Origin: a virus
Lineage: Duplodnaviria; Heunggongvirae; Uroviricota; Caudoviricetes
Strand: one strand, 5' to 3'
Length of the DNA: 42,656 bases
IMG/VR virus record: IMGVR_UViG_2698536681_000004
Shown: positions 2,735 to 42,548 of the stretch, piece after piece
Numbering within the stretch: the first letter of the stretch is position 1
Layout: each line of letters starts with the position of its first letter
Program-made: the position numbers and the translations under genes
Notes under the pieces: generated by a model
The model's database searches: none
Seen by the model: only the letters and a program-made list of their open reading frames with translations
Told to the model about the DNA's origin: nothing

Positions 2735-3300
2735 GTAAGCGTGCAGCAAGAACCGTATTGACGGGAATGTGTTATTCAGTCGGCAGTGCTACGCGCCAGG
2801 GGAGCAGTTCGCCGACCCGGTTTATCGGCCAGTCGGCTATGACGTCAAGGACATAGCGGAGGTAGCTTTCTGGCTCCACTCCGTTCAGTTTGCACGTCCC
2901 GATCAGGCTGTACAGCAGCGCTCCCCGCTCTCCTCCATGATCCGAACCGAAGAACAGGTAGTTTTTGCGGCCCAGACTGACCATCCGCAACGCATTTTCA
3001 GCGATGTTATTGTCCGCCTCAGCCCAGCCATCATCTGCATAGTACGTCAGCGCCGGCCACTGGTTCAGGGCATATGCGAACGCTTTCGCCAGTTCTGAGT
3101 GTCGCGACAGGGTTTTCATCTTTTCACGCAGCCAGCTTTCCAGGGATTTCAGCAGCGGTTTCGTTTTCAACTGACGTTCGGCAAGGCGCTGTTTCAGCAG
3201 GAAGATGTCGTCAGAAGAGATGTCGTTCATAAGCCCGTATTTTACCGGGCTTATTCTGTGACAACCAGGATAAAGAGATTTACAGCATGGTCAGGGAGGT
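2735..3300 (-). mobile_element. IS66-family element, 3' portion (terminal repeat starting GTAAGCG at 2735 plus tnpC C-terminal region)
   Basis: IS66-family inverted repeats typically begin 5'-GTAA; GTAAGCGTGCAGCAAG at 2735 lies just beyond the transposase C-terminus; upstream boundary with the prophage end is not resolved. Confidence 0.55.
2772..3230 (-). pseudogene. tnpC: IS66-family transposase TnpC (orf3), C-terminal fragment only
   Basis: Translation ...GRKNYLFFGSDHGGERGALLYSLIGTCKLNGVEPESYLRYVLDVIADWP...ELLPW matches the conserved C-terminal region of IS66 transposases; the N-terminal two thirds are absent and the frame closes at a stop at 3291-3293. Confidence 0.7.
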
Positions 3301-3337
3301 CAGCAGCCGCTTAGGCTGTCTATAGCGCGGCGATTTT

Positions 3338-3405
3338 TTTGATACCGATTTGCATTTCATTTGATACCGCTGAAAAACGCCGATACGCAACTTATTTGAT
3401 ACTAA
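3338..3405. repeat. Prophage right end (attR-like): three closely spaced TTTGATAC(C/T) motifs, putative transposase binding sites
   Basis: TTTGATACCG at 3338-3347 and 3360-3369, TTTGATACTA at 3395-3404; the same motif occurs three times in reverse complement at the other prophage end. Confidence 0.6.
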
Positions 3406-3448
3406 ATCGGCGCTTTTCTTTTGAGTTTTAGAATGAGTTTTTAAGCGT

Positions 3449-4186
3449 TCATTCACTCTCTTTCAAACCAGTTTTAACTGTTTGTGGTTTTGGGTAAGGC
3501 TGGACTTTGAATAGCTTTGTGTTAAGGCGTTTTCTGGCTCTCTTGTCCAGAAACCGGATGTAACGAAACTGACGGAATTTATGAACACTGGCTCTGTCGA
3601 TATTAGCCCGCAGATGTTCACCTCGCTGTCCTCCTCGTTTGATTGCATTCTTGCAAATCTCGTGATACCACTCGCCATCAAGTTCATAGAATGTTGTTTC
3701 ATGACTGCCTACATAATCAAAATTGCTTGCCTGGTACACGACACCAAGACAGCCACAACGCTCATCTGCAAACGACTGAACCCACTGCACCTGCGGATAA
3801 AGTTGTCTGATTAGTTTGAGCGCGTAACTGATTGCCCTTGATTCGGAGTTTCTCGGCATACAGTCATGCAGCCATAACCGGTTAAGCTCCATATATTCGC
3901 GGTTCTGCGTGCCAGTTACGACGCGTGCACCATTGTTTGGATTAAGGGCATAACCCCATTGCATTACGCCAACCAGCTCCCGTTCTGAAAATATGCCCAG
4001 ATGAAGGTAGGAATTATTTACGAAACGATGGCTGTAATGTTTATTGACGACGACCAGCCGGGCCAGCCAGCAACTTATTGTCTCAACCCGTAACTCACGG
4101 GAGCCATAACCGACGATATTGTCGTTATAGTGAATAAGTTCAGGCGTGCTGATGATACGGGATGTAACTTGCTTTCTGTTCCCCAC
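3449..4186 (-). CDS. mom: Mom-like DNA modification protein (start internal to the long ORF, approximate)
   Basis: ORF overlaps the 3' end of com exactly as mom does in Mu and is the last gene before the prophage end; the longest ORF (to 4381) would run through com so the true start is internal, candidate GTG at 4186; Mom family assigned by synteny. Confidence 0.55.
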
Positions 4187-4340
4187 GACAGGATTTCCTT
4201 GTGTATGTGGGGTGCTCTGTGGCGCTCTGAGATGTGATTTGATTGAGGGTTTTACAGCGCGGACATTTAACTTCCAGATAACTGAAGCTGGCTCGTGCCA
4301 GTAGCTTGTTACAATGTCGGCACCGTATGTTTCGATACAT
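4140..4340 (-). CDS. com: Com-like zinc-finger translational activator of mom
   Basis: ATG at 4340 preceded by AGGAGG; product [27 protein letters not shown] has the CxxC...CPRC zinc finger and strong similarity to Mu Com as recalled (IRCKNCNKLLFKA...IEIRCPRCK). Confidence 0.75.
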
Positions 4341-4383
4341 GGCCGCATAACCTCCTGCTTTGTTGTTGATATCTTTATCACTC

Positions 4384-7800: not shown

Positions 7801-7834
7801 AATTCAAAAAAGCGTCACGGTACTTTTGGTGACG
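7801..7834 (-). terminator. Intrinsic terminator overlapping the invertase stop codon
   Basis: Stem CGTCAC (7813-7818) / GTGACG (7829-7834) with a 10-nt loop; on the minus strand followed by CTTTTTTGAATT. Confidence 0.5.
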
Positions 7835-8391
7835 GAGCTGGTGAGGCAGGAAAATAACGATAAAGGGTGGAAAGGCCAATATCAAATATCAGTGCGATTT
7901 GTTTACGGGACTCGCCATTAGCCAGCAAACGGGCGATTTGCTCCCGCTCTTTCTCTGTCAGTTTCTGAGGTCTGCCGCCATGACGCCCCTGAGCACGGGC
8001 AGCAGCAAGACCCGCGCGTGTACGTTCAATAATGAGTTCCCGCTCCATTTCCGCCAGCGCGCCCATTATATGGAAAAAGAAACGTCCCATGGGAGTGGAT
8101 GTATCAATATTGTCCGTAATGCTGCGGAAGTTAACGCCGCGTTGCCGGAGTTCTTCTGTTAAAAGGACAAGGTGCTGCATACTGCGTCCAAGGCGATCCA
8201 GTTTCCAGACCAGCAGGGTATCCCCTGGCCGGAGTCGCTTTAATGCGCGTTTAAGTCCGGGACGCTCCCTTGTCTTACCGCTTATTCTGTCTTCGAAAAA
8301 CAGCTCACATCCTGCACATTCCAGCGCATTTCTTTGTAGCGCCGTATTCTGGTCATTTGTTGACACCCTGATATACCCAATNNNNNNNNNN
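7815..8391 (-). CDS. gin: Serine recombinase, DNA invertase of the Gin/Pin/Hin family (first codons lost in the assembly gap)
   Basis: Translation IGYIRVSTNDQNTALQRNALECAGCELFFEDRISGKTRERPGLKRALKRL...GRFFFHIMGALAEMERELIIERT is near-identical in pattern to Gin/Pin; reading frame runs into the N-run at 8392. Confidence 0.9.
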
Positions 8392-8723
8392 NNNNNNNNN
8401 NNNNNNNNNNNNNNNNNNNNNNNNNNNNNNNNNNNNNNNNNNNNNNNNNNNNNNNNNNNNNNNNNNNNNNNNNNNNNNNNNNNNNNNNNNNNNNNNNNNN
8501 NNNNNNNNNNNNNNNNNNNNNNNNNNNNNNNNNNNNNNNNNNNNNNNNNNNNNNNNNNNNNNNNNNNNNNNNNNNNNNNNNNNNNNNNNNNNNNNNNNNN
8601 NNNNNNNNNNNNNNNNNNNNNNNNNNNNNNNNNNNNNNNNNNNNNNNNNNNNNNNNNNNNNNNNNNNNNNNNNNNNNNNNNNNNNNNNNNNNNNNNNNNN
8701 NNNNNNNNNNNNNNNNNNNNNNN
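8392..8723. other. Assembly gap (332 N)
   Basis: Uninterrupted run of n characters. Confidence 1.
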
Positions 8724-8883
8724 CAGGCAGGTAATGTACGGTGGGGCATATTACTCTGCGTACGGTAATGTTATGGCAGGCCTGCAGATTGACAGTAAAG
8801 TTGATGCTTCAAACGATTTTATAGCATTCAGACCCCTGCAAAAATTAGTCGGAGGTACATGGATTACGGTATCTCAGTTATAA
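8724..8883 (+). CDS. C-terminal fragment of an alternative tail fibre variable domain (5' part in gap)
   Basis: Last 52 codons before TAA at 8881-8883 end ...FRPLQKLVGGTWITVSQL, homologous to the C-terminus of the minus-strand tail fibre (...[18 protein letters not shown]). Confidence 0.45.
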
Positions 8884-21701: not shown

Positions 21702-22649
21702 TTACAGATAATCCGCGACAACCAGCTCCAGCTTGCCCTTCATCTCGTTAGAGACTGTGGCGTTACCGTCTGCGAACAGCTCGCGCTCCAGCAGCTGCAC
21801 CGCCTGTTTTTCCAGCGAGGTGGGGACAACAATATGGGTGGGTTTGATGCCGAGTTTGCGGCCACCGTCAGCCTTAAAGTCACGCATGGCTGACCAGCCG
21901 TGCCACAGCGCATCCAGCGTCAGCGGTGACTGCATCATGTAGGCCATCTGCCAGAAGCCGTAGCCCACATTGCGACGGGCGGAAGCACCGAACACAAACT
22001 CGTTATCAGTAAACGCACGGCCTTCATCGACTTTTGTCTGGGCAACCAGTTCGGCTTTGCGGCGATCCTGATAAATCAGCGGTTTTACCGCGCGGGAGCA
22101 GTCAAGCAGATACCAGGCCGGGCCGCTGTAATCCGCCTGTGCACCGACAGAGCCGGTTTTTGCCACAAACATATTGCTGACCATCTGTGCATCACCGGAG
22201 CCATCCACTTTGGGGTAAACAGGGTGTTCGGTATCAAAGAAGTTCTGGCCGTCATAGCAGGCCGCATTCAGACCATCACGCAGTGCAGCAAAGACCAGTT
22301 CATCCGGTTGTGCCGCAGCGGCACGACCCATTTCCTGGAATAACGGGGAGTAGATGCCGAGATTGTCGTCTTCAAAGTCATCGCGGCTAATGGCAACGGT
22401 GCCTTCAAAGGTTTTGTTCACGATGGCGTAGCCATAGGCTTTCATCTTCTCGATGACGCGGGAGCCGATCCACTCACGGAACTGCGGGAACTGCCCCAGC
22501 CAGCCGTAGGTGTTGGATTTCGAGGTGGACGGCACGGTCATCGCAATTTTCTGGTACTGCGACGGAGCCATGGACATCCCGGCCTGAAAATCAGAACGGT
22601 AGCCCGTCATCAGGGCGGTGATCATCGCCGGTGTAATCGGGGTAGGCAT
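21702..22649 (-). CDS. Major capsid protein (Mu T/gp34-like)
   Basis: 315-aa product downstream of the protease/scaffold gene. Confidence 0.8.
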   Translation of the reverse strand: MPTPITPAMITALMTGYRSDFQAGMSMAPSQYQKIAMTVPSTSKSNTYGWLGQFPQFREWIGSRVIEKMKAYGYAIVNKTFEGTVAISRDDFEDDNLGIYSPLFQEMGRAAAAQPDELVFAALRDGLNAACYDGQNFFDTEHPVYPKVDGSGDAQMVSNMFVAKTGSVGAQADYSGPAWYLLDCSRAVKPLIYQDRRKAELVAQTKVDEGRAFTDNEFVFGASARRNVGYGFWQMAYMMQSPLTLDALWHGWSAMRDFKADGGRKLGIKPTHIVVPTSLEKQAVQLLERELFADGNATVSNEMKGKLELVVADYL

Positions 22650-37473: not shown

Positions 37474-37701
37474 TTAGCTGACTTGTTTCGCACCAACAGA
37501 ACGGCATATTCCGCTGTAAACTTCTGTCGCACCTTCGCGATCAAGTCCGGCAGATATCACCATTCGTGTGCGGTCATTAAATTCAAAAAGTAAATCGCCA
37601 CATTCTTTATTTTCGGCCAGTGAAATCACCTTCACGTTATCGAAATTAACCAGGTAAAAGCGTCCGTAAATATCAGGAATATTAAATACCGCCATAATCA
37701 C
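37474..37701 (-). CDS. Hypothetical protein
   Basis: 75-codon ORF immediately downstream of B. Confidence 0.4.
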   Translation of the reverse strand: MIMAVFNIPDIYGRFYLVNFDNVKVISLAENKECGDLLFEFNDRTRMVISAGLDREGATEVYSGICRSVGAKQVS

Positions 37702-38639
37702 ACCTGTGAGAGTAATTCAGGGTTGGTATAAACCTCTTTAAAGGCCGCATTAATATGTTTTTCTGTCAGCGCCGCGCCTTCACCGCTGGCGGTGAGCCAC
37801 GCCTGGTTAAGCGTATGTGTCAGAACGCGTAACGCTCCCGGCTTTTCAGCGATAGCCTGCATGACGGCCAGCTCGGCCTCACCACTGATCCCCCACGCCA
37901 TGGCAATGGCCAGCACATCCGCCTTTTTGGCCTTGCGAAGTTGTTTTGTACGGGCAAGACGGCTGAACAGGCGCGATAAATCATCAAAGGCGCGGCGTCC
38001 ACCTTTAAACAATCCGCGCGGGTTACCAATAAGCACCATCCCGATCCCCGTGGCGTCCTGAATTGCCCGGAGTTGCTCCAGACCGTCAATACCAAGATGA
38101 TCCGCCTCATCCACAATCACCAGTCCACGCGTTCCCATCAGGCGACGGCGGATGGCGCGGGATAATGCCCCTTTGTTCGCGCGGGTGTAATCAATCCCCA
38201 GCGCATCGGCCAGCTCCAGCAGACACTCCGTGACGCTGGAGTGCGCGGGTGACAGGGTGATCATCCAGGTGTTTGGTTGCTCCTGGCAGTAATTACGGGC
38301 AGTGGCCGTTTTACCCACACCCGGTACGCCCACAATAACGTTAATACAGCCCATCAGGCGAACCGCCTGAAACAGTGCGCGCAGCTCCTGGACTGTCTGA
38401 GTTTCCACAAACTGCGGCGGTTCCGGCAGTGCGCTTTGTTTATTCCAGTTCTCATACCAGGAGCGCAGGGAAGCAGCCACAGCAGCGTTATCGCCTTTAT
38501 ATTTTCCCTTACGGAAAGCCGATAATGTGCCGTCGGAAATTCCCGCCTCTCTGGCGATGGCATACTGCGTCAGTACGCCGCCATCAATAAGTTCATCAAT
38601 GGTCTTGATTACATCGTTAATATCGGTCATATTATTCAC
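37698..38639 (-). CDS. B: Transposition ATPase B (MuB-like)
   Basis: N-terminal helix-turn-helix, Walker A GVPGVGKT, and position directly downstream of the transposase. Confidence 0.8.
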   Translation of the reverse strand: MNNMTDINDVIKTIDELIDGGVLTQYAIAREAGISDGTLSAFRKGKYKGDNAAVAASLRSWYENWNKQSALPEPPQFVETQTVQELRALFQAVRLMGCINVIVGVPGVGKTATARNYCQEQPNTWMITLSPAHSSVTECLLELADALGIDYTRANKGALSRAIRRRLMGTRGLVIVDEADHLGIDGLEQLRAIQDATGIGMVLIGNPRGLFKGGRRAFDDLSRLFSRLARTKQLRKAKKADVLAIAMAWGISGEAELAVMQAIAEKPGALRVLTHTLNQAWLTASGEGAALTEKHINAAFKEVYTNPELLSQV

Positions 38640-38712: not shown

Positions 38713-40800
38713 TCAGGCCAGCGGATCACTTTCTTTTAATTTCGCTTCGAGCAGTTGCAATCCCCGCTGGAAATTACGCTCGTATTCTTCATCAGGTTCA
38801 TCGTCAGCGACCGGTTGCTGAACGGTCACCGTATTACCCACAGGGCGGTATATGTTTTCCAGCCAGGGCTCCTGCGGCTTGTGCTCCAGCACGTTGACAA
38901 CCTCATCCTCGGCATCACGGATTTTTTCCTCTGCGCGTTTACGCATGCCTTTAAGGCGCTGCTGCTGTTTGTAGTATTCCGCGCTGACAGGGAAGGCTTC
39001 GCGTTTATTGCCGTCCCATACCGCCTCGCAAATCACGCTGCCATCCGGGCGGCGCACGGTAATTCGTTCGGCATCATGAATGTCATAGCTGATAAGTACC
39101 TTACGGCCATGCTCGTCACGCAGCTCGGGCGCGTAGTAAATATTATTCAGCCAGCGTATTTCACAGCGTCTTACAGGGCGCTCCACCATCGGCCGGAACA
39201 TATCCCGCAGTTCAACATCGGACAGCCATTCAATTTCCGTGTCCTCTTCCGCCAGGCGTTTTTTTCTGAACTCCGCCGGGCTGTAATGTTTACCGTTCGG
39301 CTTCATGGGTAATTCATCGTGCGGCCGGTTGTTGTACCACTCAACACCGTCACGAATGGCATCAATCAGTTCAGACCAGGACGGTAAATCACGCATCGCT
39401 GACTGCTGCCGGGCGTTCAGCCGTTTGCCCTGTTGCAGGGCACTGAATGCCGAGCGTAAATCGCGGTTGGTTTTACGTAACGTCTCGCGATCTGCTCCTT
39501 TCCCGAAATAGGTGCGGTATTTACGGGCTATGCGCATCGGTAATGTGCGGTTAAGCCGTTCGATAATGCCCCGTCCCTGCGGATTACCGGCAATCCCTGT
39601 CGGGTGATTAATCCCCAGTCGTGGCAGTATCCCCACAATCTCCTTATCCAGGACGTCGGCGGTTTCCCCGGAGCCATTATCCGAGTAATACAGAAACGGT
39701 TTGCCATGATGGCGAATACCGTGCTGTATGGCACCGGCTACGGCGAAAACATTTTCAGCCAGGTCAAGGCTCCAGCCCACCACAAAGCGCGTGCCACCGT
39801 CGATAACAAAGGTCACTTCCGGTGCGAATGGCCGCCCGTGAACCGGGTGCGCGCATTTCAGCTTCATGCCGTGACCGTCACCAATCCAGACATAATTCAC
39901 CGGCATTCTGGACCAGTCGCGGCGCGTGAATCCCTCAAGCTGACGGTATTCACTGCCAGTTACCCGGCCTTTTTGTTTCACCACTTCCGGCAGTTTCTTC
40001 ATTGCGCGGCGAATGGTGTCATAAGAGGGCATGATATCGAGCATATAAGGCTCATCAGCGTGCCGGTGCTGCCATTCAGCAACAAAATCCTCGTAAGCCT
40101 CGGTCATTGGTCGGCCGTTTGACTGGCGATACTGCGCCAGAAATTCGGGCAGCCAGTTAATATCTTCGGCTTTTATTTCCTGGCGTTTACCCGGTGCCAG
40201 TAAAAGCAGGCGTTCAGCGGCGTTCTGTGCCTTGTTAAAGGCCGCAATCCAGCGTTTCAGCGTGATTTCACTCAACGCGCGGCTGTTTCCCTTTTTGGCG
40301 TTCGCCGTCTCAACCATTGCCACAATGCGCTCGTCCAGTTGTGATCGTGCCAGGCTGTTAACGAGGAACCGGATAGCTTTAGCGCAGCTGAAACCGGGTT
40401 GTTGCGTGAATTTCAGCACCTCACTGACGATCGCAATGCGTGCGTCTGCCACCTGGCGCTGGTTTTCAGTCAGGGCATTGAGGCGTTCGACCATCAGTTG
40501 TGGTGATCCGCGATATGCCTCCACCGCATCAACCACGGCAGACGAGCGTCTGGCCTTTGTCACCACCGGAGCCGGTGATTCATCGGCTTTTTGCGTCATC
40601 AGTTGCAGGGCATAACGTTCGCGTAATGCCTGCTGTGTCACTTCAGGTAAACAGTCAATGCTGTATTCAAAACCTTTAGCGCCTTTCTTGCGGCGTCTGC
40701 TGGTTTCGCTGGTTGCATACTTCCTGATTGAATAGCGAACGCCTTGCTCCGTTCCCGGCATCCCCGGTAATCCAACCAGTTCTTTAACTGAAGCAAACAT
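38713..40800 (-). CDS. A: DDE transposase A (MuA-like)
   Basis: 695-aa product with N-terminal DNA-binding region and central integrase-like core; follows ner. Confidence 0.85.
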   Translation of the reverse strand: MFASVKELVGLPGMPGTEQGVRYSIRKYATSETSRRRKKGAKGFEYSIDCLPEVTQQALRERYALQLMTQKADESPAPVVTKARRSSAVVDAVEAYRGSPQLMVERLNALTENQRQVADARIAIVSEVLKFTQQPGFSCAKAIRFLVNSLARSQLDERIVAMVETANAKKGNSRALSEITLKRWIAAFNKAQNAAERLLLLAPGKRQEIKAEDINWLPEFLAQYRQSNGRPMTEAYEDFVAEWQHRHADEPYMLDIMPSYDTIRRAMKKLPEVVKQKGRVTGSEYRQLEGFTRRDWSRMPVNYVWIGDGHGMKLKCAHPVHGRPFAPEVTFVIDGGTRFVVGWSLDLAENVFAVAGAIQHGIRHHGKPFLYYSDNGSGETADVLDKEIVGILPRLGINHPTGIAGNPQGRGIIERLNRTLPMRIARKYRTYFGKGADRETLRKTNRDLRSAFSALQQGKRLNARQQSAMRDLPSWSELIDAIRDGVEWYNNRPHDELPMKPNGKHYSPAEFRKKRLAEEDTEIEWLSDVELRDMFRPMVERPVRRCEIRWLNNIYYAPELRDEHGRKVLISYDIHDAERITVRRPDGSVICEAVWDGNKREAFPVSAEYYKQQQRLKGMRKRAEEKIRDAEDEVVNVLEHKPQEPWLENIYRPVGNTVTVQQPVADDEPDEEYERNFQRGLQLLEAKLKESDPLA

Positions 40801-40802
40801 AA

Positions 40803-41033
40803 TTACGCGACCTTACGAATGTAGCGGCTGGGCCAAATCTCCTCGGGCGGCACCCCCAGGCATTCCGCGATAATCCCCTCATACTTGGGAACATGGCGGT
40901 ATACCGCGTTGTACAGATTGTTCTGACCCACGCCAGCTTTACGGGCCAGCGCCCTCATGCTTCCTTCTCTGGCTCTGACTTCCCCCAAAATTCTTTGAGG
41001 ATGCCAATCAGGCTTAACTTCATTTCTCGCCAT
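40803..41033 (-). CDS. ner: Ner-like DNA-binding regulator
   Basis: Translation ...VKPDWHPQRILGEVRAR..SMRALARKAGVGQNNLYNAV...EEIWPSRY parallels Mu Ner as recalled. Confidence 0.75.
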   Translation of the reverse strand: MARNEVKPDWHPQRILGEVRAREGSMRALARKAGVGQNNLYNAVYRHVPKYEGIIAECLGVPPEEIWPSRYIRKVA

Positions 41034-41218
41034 GATTCATCTATCCTAAAAAGTTACGAAATTTGATAACTAAACTTAGTTATCAAGTTTGATATAAGTA
41101 TTGATCCACTTCTGCTTCATGTAAAGCAAAAAAAACATCTTTCTTTTGTCTATTGTGGATCAATGGTTGCTGACAACACTAAAAGTTAATAATTTCAAAT
41201 TGATAGGAAGAAAAGAAA
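41034..41218. promoter_or_regulatory. Divergent early/repressor control region with operator-like palindromes
   Basis: Perfect palindrome TTGATAACTA AACT TAGTTATCAA (41063-41086) and inverted repeat ATTGATCCAC (41100-41109) / GTGGATCAAT (41155-41164), both arms of the second containing GATC. Confidence 0.5.
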
Positions 41219-41764
41219 ATGAACAAGCAAACAACAACATCTCTTTCTTTTCCTGGTGGTAGAAAAGAAAGCATTGCTGAGCGTCTGAAAAGGCTGATTG
41301 GCTCCCGCAGCGTCAGAGCTGCAGCAAGAGATTGGGGGCTTTCATTTTCAACACTAAACAATTATCTGTCTCGTGGCACTGAGCCATCCTTAAGTGTCGC
41401 CCTTCAGATTGCGTCTATCGAAGGAGTAAGTGTTGAGTGGCTATGTGGATTCAGTGATGCATCACAAGTGAATCGGTGTGAGATCAAGGAAAATCAAGAT
41501 GAAAGCAAGAAGATAATTATGACGATTATCAGCGCACTTGATGAAAAAGACTTAGAGCAGCTATCGAAAAATTTGGTTCTGAATGGAGCCAAGTACTTAG
41601 CTCGGTTGTTAGAGCCTGAAAATCAAGATCTAATCCGCTTAGAAGGAAGGAAAAGAATAGCTGCATTACAGCTTGAAGGTATGTCTGACGAACGCGTCAG
41701 AGAGATTTTGGAAGAAACTGAGAGAAGTCGCAAATCTAACGCGGTAGAACCAAAAGCGGGTTAA
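41219..41764 (+). CDS. c: Prophage repressor (c-like, helix-turn-helix)
   Basis: Divergent from ner across an operator-rich region; HTH-like segment WGLSFSTLNNYLSRGTEPSL; last gene before the prophage end. Confidence 0.6.
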   Translation: MNKQTTTSLSFPGGRKESIAERLKRLIGSRSVRAAARDWGLSFSTLNNYLSRGTEPSLSVALQIASIEGVSVEWLCGFSDASQVNRCEIKENQDESKKIIMTIISALDEKDLEQLSKNLVLNGAKYLARLLEPENQDLIRLEGRKRIAALQLEGMSDERVREILEETERSRKSNAVEPKAG

Positions 41765-41836: not shown

Positions 41837-42000
41837 CAGTATCAAATGAGTTGCCGATTTTATAATAAATGACTAATTATTGCACAATCGGTATCAAATA
41901 GACCTTATCCGCACATCTAGCCATCACCTGTTTTATTTCAGTATCTTACAGGTGATTTCACCTCCTTTCACTAAACCCCTTGTCGGTATCAAATGATTCA
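41837..42000. repeat. Prophage left end (attL-like): three spaced copies of the end motif in reverse complement, terminal CA at 42000
   Basis: CAGTATCAAATG (41837-41848), CGGTATCAAATA (41889-41900), CGGTATCAAATG (41985-41996); spread-out spacing contrasts with the compact set at the other end, as for Mu attL versus attR. Confidence 0.6.
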
Positions 42001-42321
42001 CCTGGTTATATGTCGCCAGTCGATACCTTCCAGCAGCATCGCCAGCTGCGCCTGTGTAAGGAACACTTTGCCATCACGGGCTGACGGCCAGGCGAAGCGC
42101 CCACGCTCCAGCCGTTTGGTCAGGAGGCACAGTCCGTCACTGGTGGACCACAGCAGTTTAACCTGACTGCCGCTGCGGCCCCGGAAAATGAAAACATGGC
42201 CGGACATGGGATCGTCTTTCAGCGCCGTCTGTACTTTCGCAGCCAGGCCGTTGAAGCCATTTCTCATATCGGTGATACCGGCAACCAGCCAAATTTTGAT
42301 CCCGGAAGGTAACGGGATCAT
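41998..42321 (-). CDS. tnpB: IS66-family accessory protein TnpB (orf2)
   Basis: Translation MIPLPSGIKIWLVAGITDMRNGFNGLAAKVQ...DGKVFLTQAQLAMLLEGIDWR matches IS66 Orf2; the C-terminus may be altered by the prophage junction. Confidence 0.8.
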   Translation of the reverse strand: MIPLPSGIKIWLVAGITDMRNGFNGLAAKVQTALKDDPMSGHVFIFRGRSGSQVKLLWSTSDGLCLLTKRLERGRFAWPSARDGKVFLTQAQLAMLLEGIDWRHITR

Positions 42322-42548
42322 CGCTTCAGTTCCTGTATCAGCAGAGTCAGGAGCTTTTCGCTGACATTGCCATTGAAGCGGAGCGTCCCGTGCCGGAACG
42401 TTACCTCACAGCTGATACTGAGGGTTTTCGGGTCCTCTGCGAGCGATTCTGGCTGTTCGGCAGCTGCATCGAGAGTCACAGGAAGTAGCTGGGGGCTCTC
42501 TGAAGAAGGTAATAGCTGAGGTGTACTGGCAATAGCGGACACTACCAT
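42318..42548 (-). CDS. tnpA: IS66-family TnpA (orf1), possibly 5'-truncated
   Basis: Overlaps tnpB start as in IS66 operons; ends ...TFRHGTLRFNGNVSEKLLTLLIQELKR; shorter than typical. Confidence 0.65.
   Translation of the reverse strand: MVVSAIASTPQLLPSSESPQLLPVTLDAAAEQPESLAEDPKTLSISCEVTFRHGTLRFNGNVSEKLLTLLIQELKR

Follow-up and report, generated by a model that had tools for sequence, protein, structure and literature searches.

Six inward-pointing boxes at the ends of an Sp18-type Mu-like prophage are putative recognition sites of its own MuA-type transposase

INTRODUCTION

What are the short repeats crowded at positions 3338-3405 of a Mu-like prophage, and which protein reads them? These positions belong to the window, by which we mean the whole stretch analyzed here (42,656 nucleotides; IMG/VR record IMGVR_UViG_2698536681_000004, Caudoviricetes). 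An earlier note, made from the letters alone, took the repeats for transposase sites at the right prophage end, spaced as in Mu attR but differing in motif from the Mu consensus. In Mu, each end carries three MuA sites with different spacings, the core sites being L1, R1 and R2, with R3 dispensable (PMC3145075). Sp18, a Mu-like prophage of Escherichia coli O157, has been reported as intact, packaged and transposable (PMC2669165, PMC7430833, PMC10132054), as not circularised (PMC2669165), and its location as variable among STEC genomes (PMC7430833, PMC10132054). Six putative transposase-binding sites have already been ascribed to Sp18 in a 2008 paper (PMC2628397), so the six boxes described below are a rediscovery, known in outline.

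RESULTS

The window contains an Sp18-type prophage

By sequence comparison, the prophage is an Sp18-type Mu-like transposable prophage of E. coli, the type found in O157 Sakai. Its right end shows no difference from that of Sakai Sp18 (NC_002695.2, 5040971..5079729) over the first 110 bp, O157 and STEC copies are about 96% identical to the window over a 580-bp right-end query, and the left-end block is about 91% identical to the Sp18 type. The termini and all six box positions are the same as in Sakai Sp18. The two prophages differ in the repressor/immunity region, the left-end similarity ending at 41837, as well as in the left terminus (TA in the window and CA in Sakai Sp18) and in box L1 (TTTGATACCG and TTTGATACCA, respectively). 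The window transposase A is 93% identical to a common E. coli cluster (P0001), and a near-identical prophage (L001) is colinear in gene order, with a full Mu-like set of head, tail, lysis, Mor and Gam genes. The genes and regions needed below are as follows.

3449-4381 (-): Mom ORF; Pfam Mom, E = 1.6e-77; last gene before attR
37698-38639 (-): MuB-like AAA+ target-capture ATPase, 313 aa; Pfam Phage-MuB_C and AAA_22
38713-40800 (-): transposase A, 695 aa; Pfam HTH_Tnp_Mu_1 and Mu-transpos_C; presumed box binder
40803-41033 (-): Ner-like early regulator, 76 aa; Pfam HTH_35
41034-41218 (no strand): divergent intergenic region, 790-980 bp from the left end; candidate operator/enhancer by position
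41219-41764 (+): repressor, 181 aa; Pfam HTH_3; reads toward the left end as in Mu

The prophage thus shares with Mu the gene order repressor, ner, A, B ... com, mom. Mom is the gene nearest to 3338-3405, and repressor, Ner, A and B lie at the opposite end, which confirms that the repeats mark the right prophage end. The enhancer of Mu is located to the right of the repressor gene (PMC5977238).

The termini are precise and flanked by a 4-bp target duplication

The host sequence around the prophage allowed both ends to be placed to the nucleotide. The match to ISEc8 ends at 3320, and one ISEc8 copy is split between window regions 3200-3320 and 42011-42516, whose counterparts in an intact copy (MN340231, 7856-7976 and 7973-8478) overlap by 4 bp. 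Because the flanks are contiguous ISEc8 with this 4-bp overlap, the element extends from 3321 to 42010 and is flanked by TGTC.

3317-3320: target-site duplication TGTC, right flank; the 4-bp overlap in intact ISEc8
3321-3404 (+): attR, right (mom-proximal) end, from the terminal nucleotide of 5'-TATAGCGCGG through R3
41837-42010 (-): attL, left (repressor-proximal) end, with boxes L1-L3; terminus ...CACCTGGTTATA-3' at 42010
42011-42014: target-site duplication TGTC, left flank; from junction comparison

When region 3321-3900 was searched against 5426 complete E. coli genomes, it matched 283 places in 232 genomes, in many unrelated genes, and all 283 matches begin at the first query base (3321). 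With the left-end query, the relatives match exactly 41837-42008 in most genomes. We then compared the junctions of 12 independent insertions, 11 of the Sp18 type (Sakai Sp18 included) and one of the S6 type. The 11 Sp18-type insertions, in different genes, all have the same end nucleotides (right 5'-TATAGCGCGG; left ...CACCTGGTTA(C/T)A-3'), and the target duplication is 4 bp in all 12: TGTC, CGAA, AAGA, CGCC, CTAA, CTCG, TAGT, GGTG, GTCG, TGTT and TTTA for the Sp18 type and TTAA for the S6 type. A 5-bp duplication, obtained by shifting either terminus by one base, was rejected, as the fifth base is mismatched in most insertions. The duplication therefore differs from that of Mu, which is 5 bp (PMC5357137).

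The right terminus is 5'-TA in every Sp18-type copy (11/11) as well as in E. coli S6 and Yersinia phage vB_YpM_5 (YpM5), whereas it is 5'-TG in Mu; some IMG/VR relatives have the canonical TGTAGCG terminus. At the left terminus, eight Sp18-type copies end in CA-3' and three (the window, strain 600029 and FORC_043) in TA-3'. Since the three TA-3' ends occupy different insertion sites, a TA end still transposes.

As to the host locus, the prophage was inserted at the 3' end of tnpB of ISEc8, immediately upstream of tnpC. What is left of tnpC is cut short near 2770, where it adjoins a lambdoid tail-fibre gene (1546-2718, -), so the locus is an IS within another prophage. This exact ISEc8 insertion is absent from the 5426 complete E. 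coli genomes.

Six copies of one box point inward from the two ends

The motifs at 3338, 3360 and 3395 and the three reverse-complement copies at the other end were all recovered at these coordinates, and they are described by the consensus TTTGATACYR.

3338-3347 (+): box R1, TTTGATACCG, exact; bp 18-27 from the right terminus
3360-3369 (+): box R2, TTTGATACCG, exact; bp 40-49, 22 bp past R1
3395-3404 (+): box R3, TTTGATACTA, 2 mismatches, direct orientation; bp 75-84
41984-41993 (-): box L1, TTTGATACCG, exact; bp 18-27 from the left terminus
41889-41898 (-): box L2, TTTGATACCG, exact; bp 113-122
41837-41846 (-): box L3, TTTGATACTG; bp 165-174

The window contains seven matches to TTTGATACYR, where 100 dinucleotide-preserving shuffles gave an expectation of 0.22 and never more than 2. 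Six of the seven copies lie within the terminal 174 bp of the prophage ends, all pointing inward. The start-to-start spacings are 22 and 35 bp at the right end versus 95 and 52 bp at the left end, which places the inner edges of the boxes at bp 27/49/84 on the right (mom) side and at bp 27/122/174 on the left (repressor) side.

The seventh copy is an internal exact TTTGATACCG in the major head gene (22229-22238, -), 436 bp off the prophage midpoint. It is found in L001 too, and the single internal box of YpM5 lies in a different gene. A functional central site was rejected on account of this lack of positional conservation in YpM5, and the internal box is unexplained or due to chance.

The boxes follow the geometry of the Mu ends but not their sequence

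For comparison, the Mu end sequences were fetched and site positions were counted along them by the half-site CGAAA(A/G), which was reportedly defined by Craigie et al. in 1984. At the Mu right end, bp 27 is the last base of GCGAAAG and bp 49 that of GCGAAAA, and an inverted copy lies at about 56-62; at the left end, ACGAAAA ends at bp 27, and further sites end at 132 and about 172. Mu and the window therefore share three sites per end, inverted between the ends, a first site ending at bp 27 at both ends, an R1-R2 step of 22 bp, compact right sites and, at the left, a long spacer between L1 and the other two sites. The likeness in spacing to Mu attR and attL suggested by the earlier note was thus borne out by counted positions (27/49/84 and 27/122/174 against 27/49 and 27/132/~172). 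In the S6 lineage, the inner edges of L2 and L3 fall at 131 and 173, and homology to Mu can be recognised in the L1-L2 spacer (CCGGGAGG...GGGAT.TGATGGGAT).

The sequences read a different way. TTTGATACYR is not present at the Mu ends, even at <=2 mismatches, and when the right ends are aligned, only the terminal AGCG is common, in agreement with the note's remark that the motif departs from the Mu consensus. The conserved box here is about 10-11 bp and has no match to the 22-bp consensus of the bipartite Mu site; the second half-site is weak, only these 10-11 bp being strongly conserved. In addition, R3 is a direct copy in the window and an inverted one in Mu.

Among other systems, Tn7 and CRISPR-associated transposons likewise have several asymmetric transposase sites (for TnsB) at each end. 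They are a different type of element without phage genes, and TnsB is 12-18% identical to A in structural alignments.

Transposase A is a full-length but distant homologue of MuA

A is 23% identical to MuA and the MuB-like ATPase 48% identical to MuB; Pfam DDE_2 and HTH_Tnp_Mu_2 were found in MuA and not in A. Judged from profile alignment, A is a colinear MuA homologue: the hhalign probability was 98.7% for a shallow profile and rose to 99.8% (E = 7.6e-30) once the profile held 116 sequences, and the DDE residues D308, D374 and E414 are invariant in the A alignments. A full-length but distant homologue of this kind fits a different box motif. The family of A comprises 467 representative clusters at E <= 1e-30.

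An AlphaFold2 model based on the 116-sequence alignment reached a pLDDT of 88.9 and replaced a run with a shallow alignment (12 sequences, >=79% identical), which was unusable at a pLDDT of 42.5. In the predicted fold, residues 1-70 form a winged-helix domain, which is followed by two helical domains (about 85-201 and about 205-290), the core and a beta-barrel. In Foldseek, the model matched MuA best, as seen in the Mu transpososome structure 4FCY (E ~2e-18), and TnsB next (8RDU, 7SVW and 9BW1).

Outside Enterobacterales, the nearest named relatives of A are the transposases of the FluMu/Hin-Mu, SuMu and Pnm1-type elements of Pasteurellaceae and Neisseria, which are 40-43% identical to A, compared with 23% for MuA. 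FluMu is described as having a functional transposase and critical binding sites in a passage of PMC3299994 that cites Saariaho et al. Upstream of the FluMu, SuMu and Pnm1-type A genes we found no TTTGATACYR triplet, and the boxes there must therefore differ.

The boxes are kept in relatives whose spacers diverge

Loss of the motifs at the ends of related phages, or termini placed elsewhere, would speak against the reading as transposase sites. The end alignment with related Mu-like phages showed the opposite, namely the same terminal nucleotide and retained boxes (bp 18/40/75 at the right end; 18 and two spread sites at the left end) among diverged spacers. The E. coli variants 2013C-4081 and strain 107 keep every box amid substituted spacers; one of the two has a cytosine methyltransferase in place of mom, and the other a left end of 84% identity, that of strain 107, in which L2 is still present. 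In a second lineage (E. coli S6 and YpM5), A is 80% identical and the ends have otherwise diverged, and the boxes stand at 18/40/75 on the right and 18/122/164 on the left. The position of R1 is the same across the Sp18, S6/YpM5 and IMG/VR lineages, and R3, amid varying flanks, is retained in many IMG/VR right ends as well as in 2013C-4081, S6 and YpM5.

More distant relatives, with A 55-62% identical over the best tblastn segment, show three TTTGATAC boxes, all inward, at a distance of 1.05-1.4 kb upstream of A; they come from Raoultella, Klebsiella, Edwardsiella, Sodalis and Symbiopectobacterium. Such boxes are also present in one Mixta phage. A scan of IMG/VR for box-N12-box returned many right ends of the form T(A/G)(T/A)AGCGCG..., 17 nt, box, N12, box, and in most of them a third box follows after 35 bp. 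By design, such a scan favours its own pattern, a bias from which the protein-led scan upstream of A is free. About half of the 57 TTTGATACYR-N12 matches in IMG/VR were unrelated GGTATCA/TGATACC iteron-like arrays and were set aside.

All six boxes are swapped together with the N-terminal part of A

The strongest evidence comes from a natural swap, in which, as far as sequences tell, the boxes covary with the N-terminal part of A. In phages of Shigella flexneri SFBU1023, E. coli ECMA0423 and E. coli VL40 (loci L088, L089 and VL40), six of six boxes read TTCAAGATAA/G (L088 2737-2990; L183 180-340, VL40), the right end of this class being taken from E. coli VL40. The terminal 17 bp are kept (left TATGACTAGGTAATTTA, right TAAAGCGCGCAAAATTA), and so is the layout, with right boxes at 18/40/75 and left boxes at 18, +71 and +52. 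Compared with S6 A, the A protein of these phages is 95-100% identical over most of residues 201-640 (two 20-residue bins at 90% and 80%), 70-73% identical in the C-terminal tail after 660, and only 20-85% identical before residue 200, the 85% being reached in the single bin 101-120. The break in identity falls where the model predicts that one helical domain ends and the next begins. An IMG/VR scan for TTCAAGATAA-N12-TTCAAGATAA returned only unrelated A/T-rich iteron arrays.

In the S6 class as in the TTCAAGATAA class, the six bases preceding the boxes are A/T-rich, approximately AAnTYA. It seems that the shared I-gamma-like domain would read this shared half-site, and the swapped I-beta-like domain would read the box. 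In the Mixta relative (L113), however, the box is kept though residues 120-190 are only 32% identical, so the mapping of specificity to these residues rests mainly on the one swap.

A third class, TTCTGGACT, keeps the end geometry, with left spacings of 72 and 51 in Pantoea and Sodalis, and in five IMG/VR contigs its right ends begin with TGTAGCGCGGCGAAATT, followed by boxes at 18 and 40 (loci L106, L116 and L174-L182). The third right-end site of this class is an inverted copy, as in Mu.

Alternative readings of the boxes

The termini, the geometry, the conservation and the covariation with A all support the proposal that the boxes are transposase sites. We consider it very probable that 3321-3404 is attR and that the six TTTGATACYR boxes are the end-recognition sites of the phage's own MuA-type transposase.

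Another reading is that a protein of the immunity module, repressor or Ner, binds the boxes, for example in silencing or insulating the prophage ends. The swapped left end, the repressor, Ner and the 5' part of A adjoin and all differ, and thus covariation alone cannot separate repressor or Ner from A; besides, in Mu the repressor is a DNA-binding protein akin to domain I-alpha of A. The swap replaced domain I-alpha, repressor and Ner as well, which makes their exclusion indirect. However, the window, S6 and 2013C-4081 share one box class, TTTGATACYR, with identities among them of only 35-56% for the repressors and 43-55% for the Ner proteins, and the repressor of the TTCAAGATAA phage is nearer to that of 2013C-4081 (53%) than the latter is to the window repressor (38%). 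Since repressor and Ner types vary within one class, the boxes track neither protein. Moreover, the operator region 41034-41218 is without a box, and the box positions reproduce the geometry of the MuA sites in Mu. We therefore regard a role of the immunity proteins as very improbable.

A somewhat smaller chance still is given to the reading that the right-end copies are a 3' terminator or regulatory hairpin of com-mom and that their likeness to the left end is incidental. It draws on an inverted repeat that encloses R3 and is followed by a T-run on the mom strand.

3372-3418 (-): 13-bp inverted repeat around R3; arms 3372-3384 and 3406-3418, 92% complementary

In the 2013C-4081 variant, the stem has survived substitutions, and the repeat may be the com-mom terminator hairpin. 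Such a hairpin would leave R1, R2 and the three inverted copies 38.6 kb away unexplained, together with the coordinated replacement of all six boxes, and the boxes are retained where a cytosine methyltransferase replaces mom. A hairpin and a binding site can also coexist, and the hairpin around R3 could have a separate role.

Chance or compositional matches, for which the prophage ends, A/T-richer than the phage body, and 62 matches to the 10-mer at <=2 mismatches in the window might speak, can be dismissed in view of the excess over the shuffles and of positions relative to the termini that are identical across lineages.

DISCUSSION

A possible working of the ends

By analogy with Mu, we infer the physical binding of A, the assignment of its domains to half-sites and the order of assembly as follows. 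One A monomer would occupy each box through the helical DNA-binding domains that follow domain I-alpha, the I-beta-like domain (about residues 85-200) reading the class-specific 10-bp box and the I-gamma-like domain reading the A/T-rich flank. The subunits at L1, R1 and R2 would synapse the ends with the help of L2, L3, R3 and the operator/enhancer. The DDE core would then nick the 3' ends (YA-3') and join them, with a 4-bp stagger, to a DNA target that the MuB-like ATPase presents. A duplication of 4 bp suggests that the active sites are spaced differently in the transpososome of this clade.

What is known and what may be new

The box finding is correct but ordinary, and it reveals no new kind of system. 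The source intended for the statement on six sites in Sp18 is probably Morgan et al. (2002). In the searchable literature, we came across no mention of the box sequence, of a 4-bp duplication, of TA termini or of swaps between box classes, and a full-text search for the motif string together with 'transposase' returned primers only. The 4-bp duplication and the 5'-TA right terminus may be new observations.

There is, in our estimate, an even chance that the Sp18/S6/FluMu-related clade is a distinct variant of the Mu type, with a 4-bp stagger, tolerance for YA-3' and interchangeable classes of box plus I-beta-like domain (TTTGATACYR, TTCAAGATAA and TTCTGGACT). As part of the same reading, the specificity classes may have evolved on an unchanged end geometry. 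If this is true, the classes would make co-resident Mu-like prophages mutually orthogonal. The swapped classes would also offer a handle on how MuA-type proteins read their sites, and potential orthogonal pairs of ends and transposases for Mu-based genome engineering. For the prophage itself, the boxes mark the boundary and the putative cis-acting transposition sites of an element that is mobile among STEC genomes and that knocks out genes, other prophages and IS elements.

Further features of the prophage

Several observations on the prophage stand apart from the boxes. A DNA cytosine methyltransferase replaces mom in some Sp18-type prophages (L002 20165-21217; L014), where it lies directly inside attR, itself otherwise conserved. 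RefSeq lists a 'tRNA-OTHER' in L001 (20698-20777), between the virion-morphogenesis and head-morphogenesis genes; ARAGORN over the window returned no tRNA. A 283-aa ORF (8032-8883, +) lies in a stretch of 29% G+C, beside 7815-8366 (-), and neighbours a Gin-like invertase and a tail-fibre assembly gene; it has no match in Pfam and is probably an alternative tail-fibre or host-range segment.

Near the left end, the L1-L2 spacer holds a perfect 9-bp inverted repeat, ATCACCTGT-N16-ACAGGTGAT (41923-41956), with further TCACCT(G) copies at 41998-42004. As guesses, it might serve as pac or bind a host factor. Every Sp18-type left end retains the repeat, even the one that is 84% identical.
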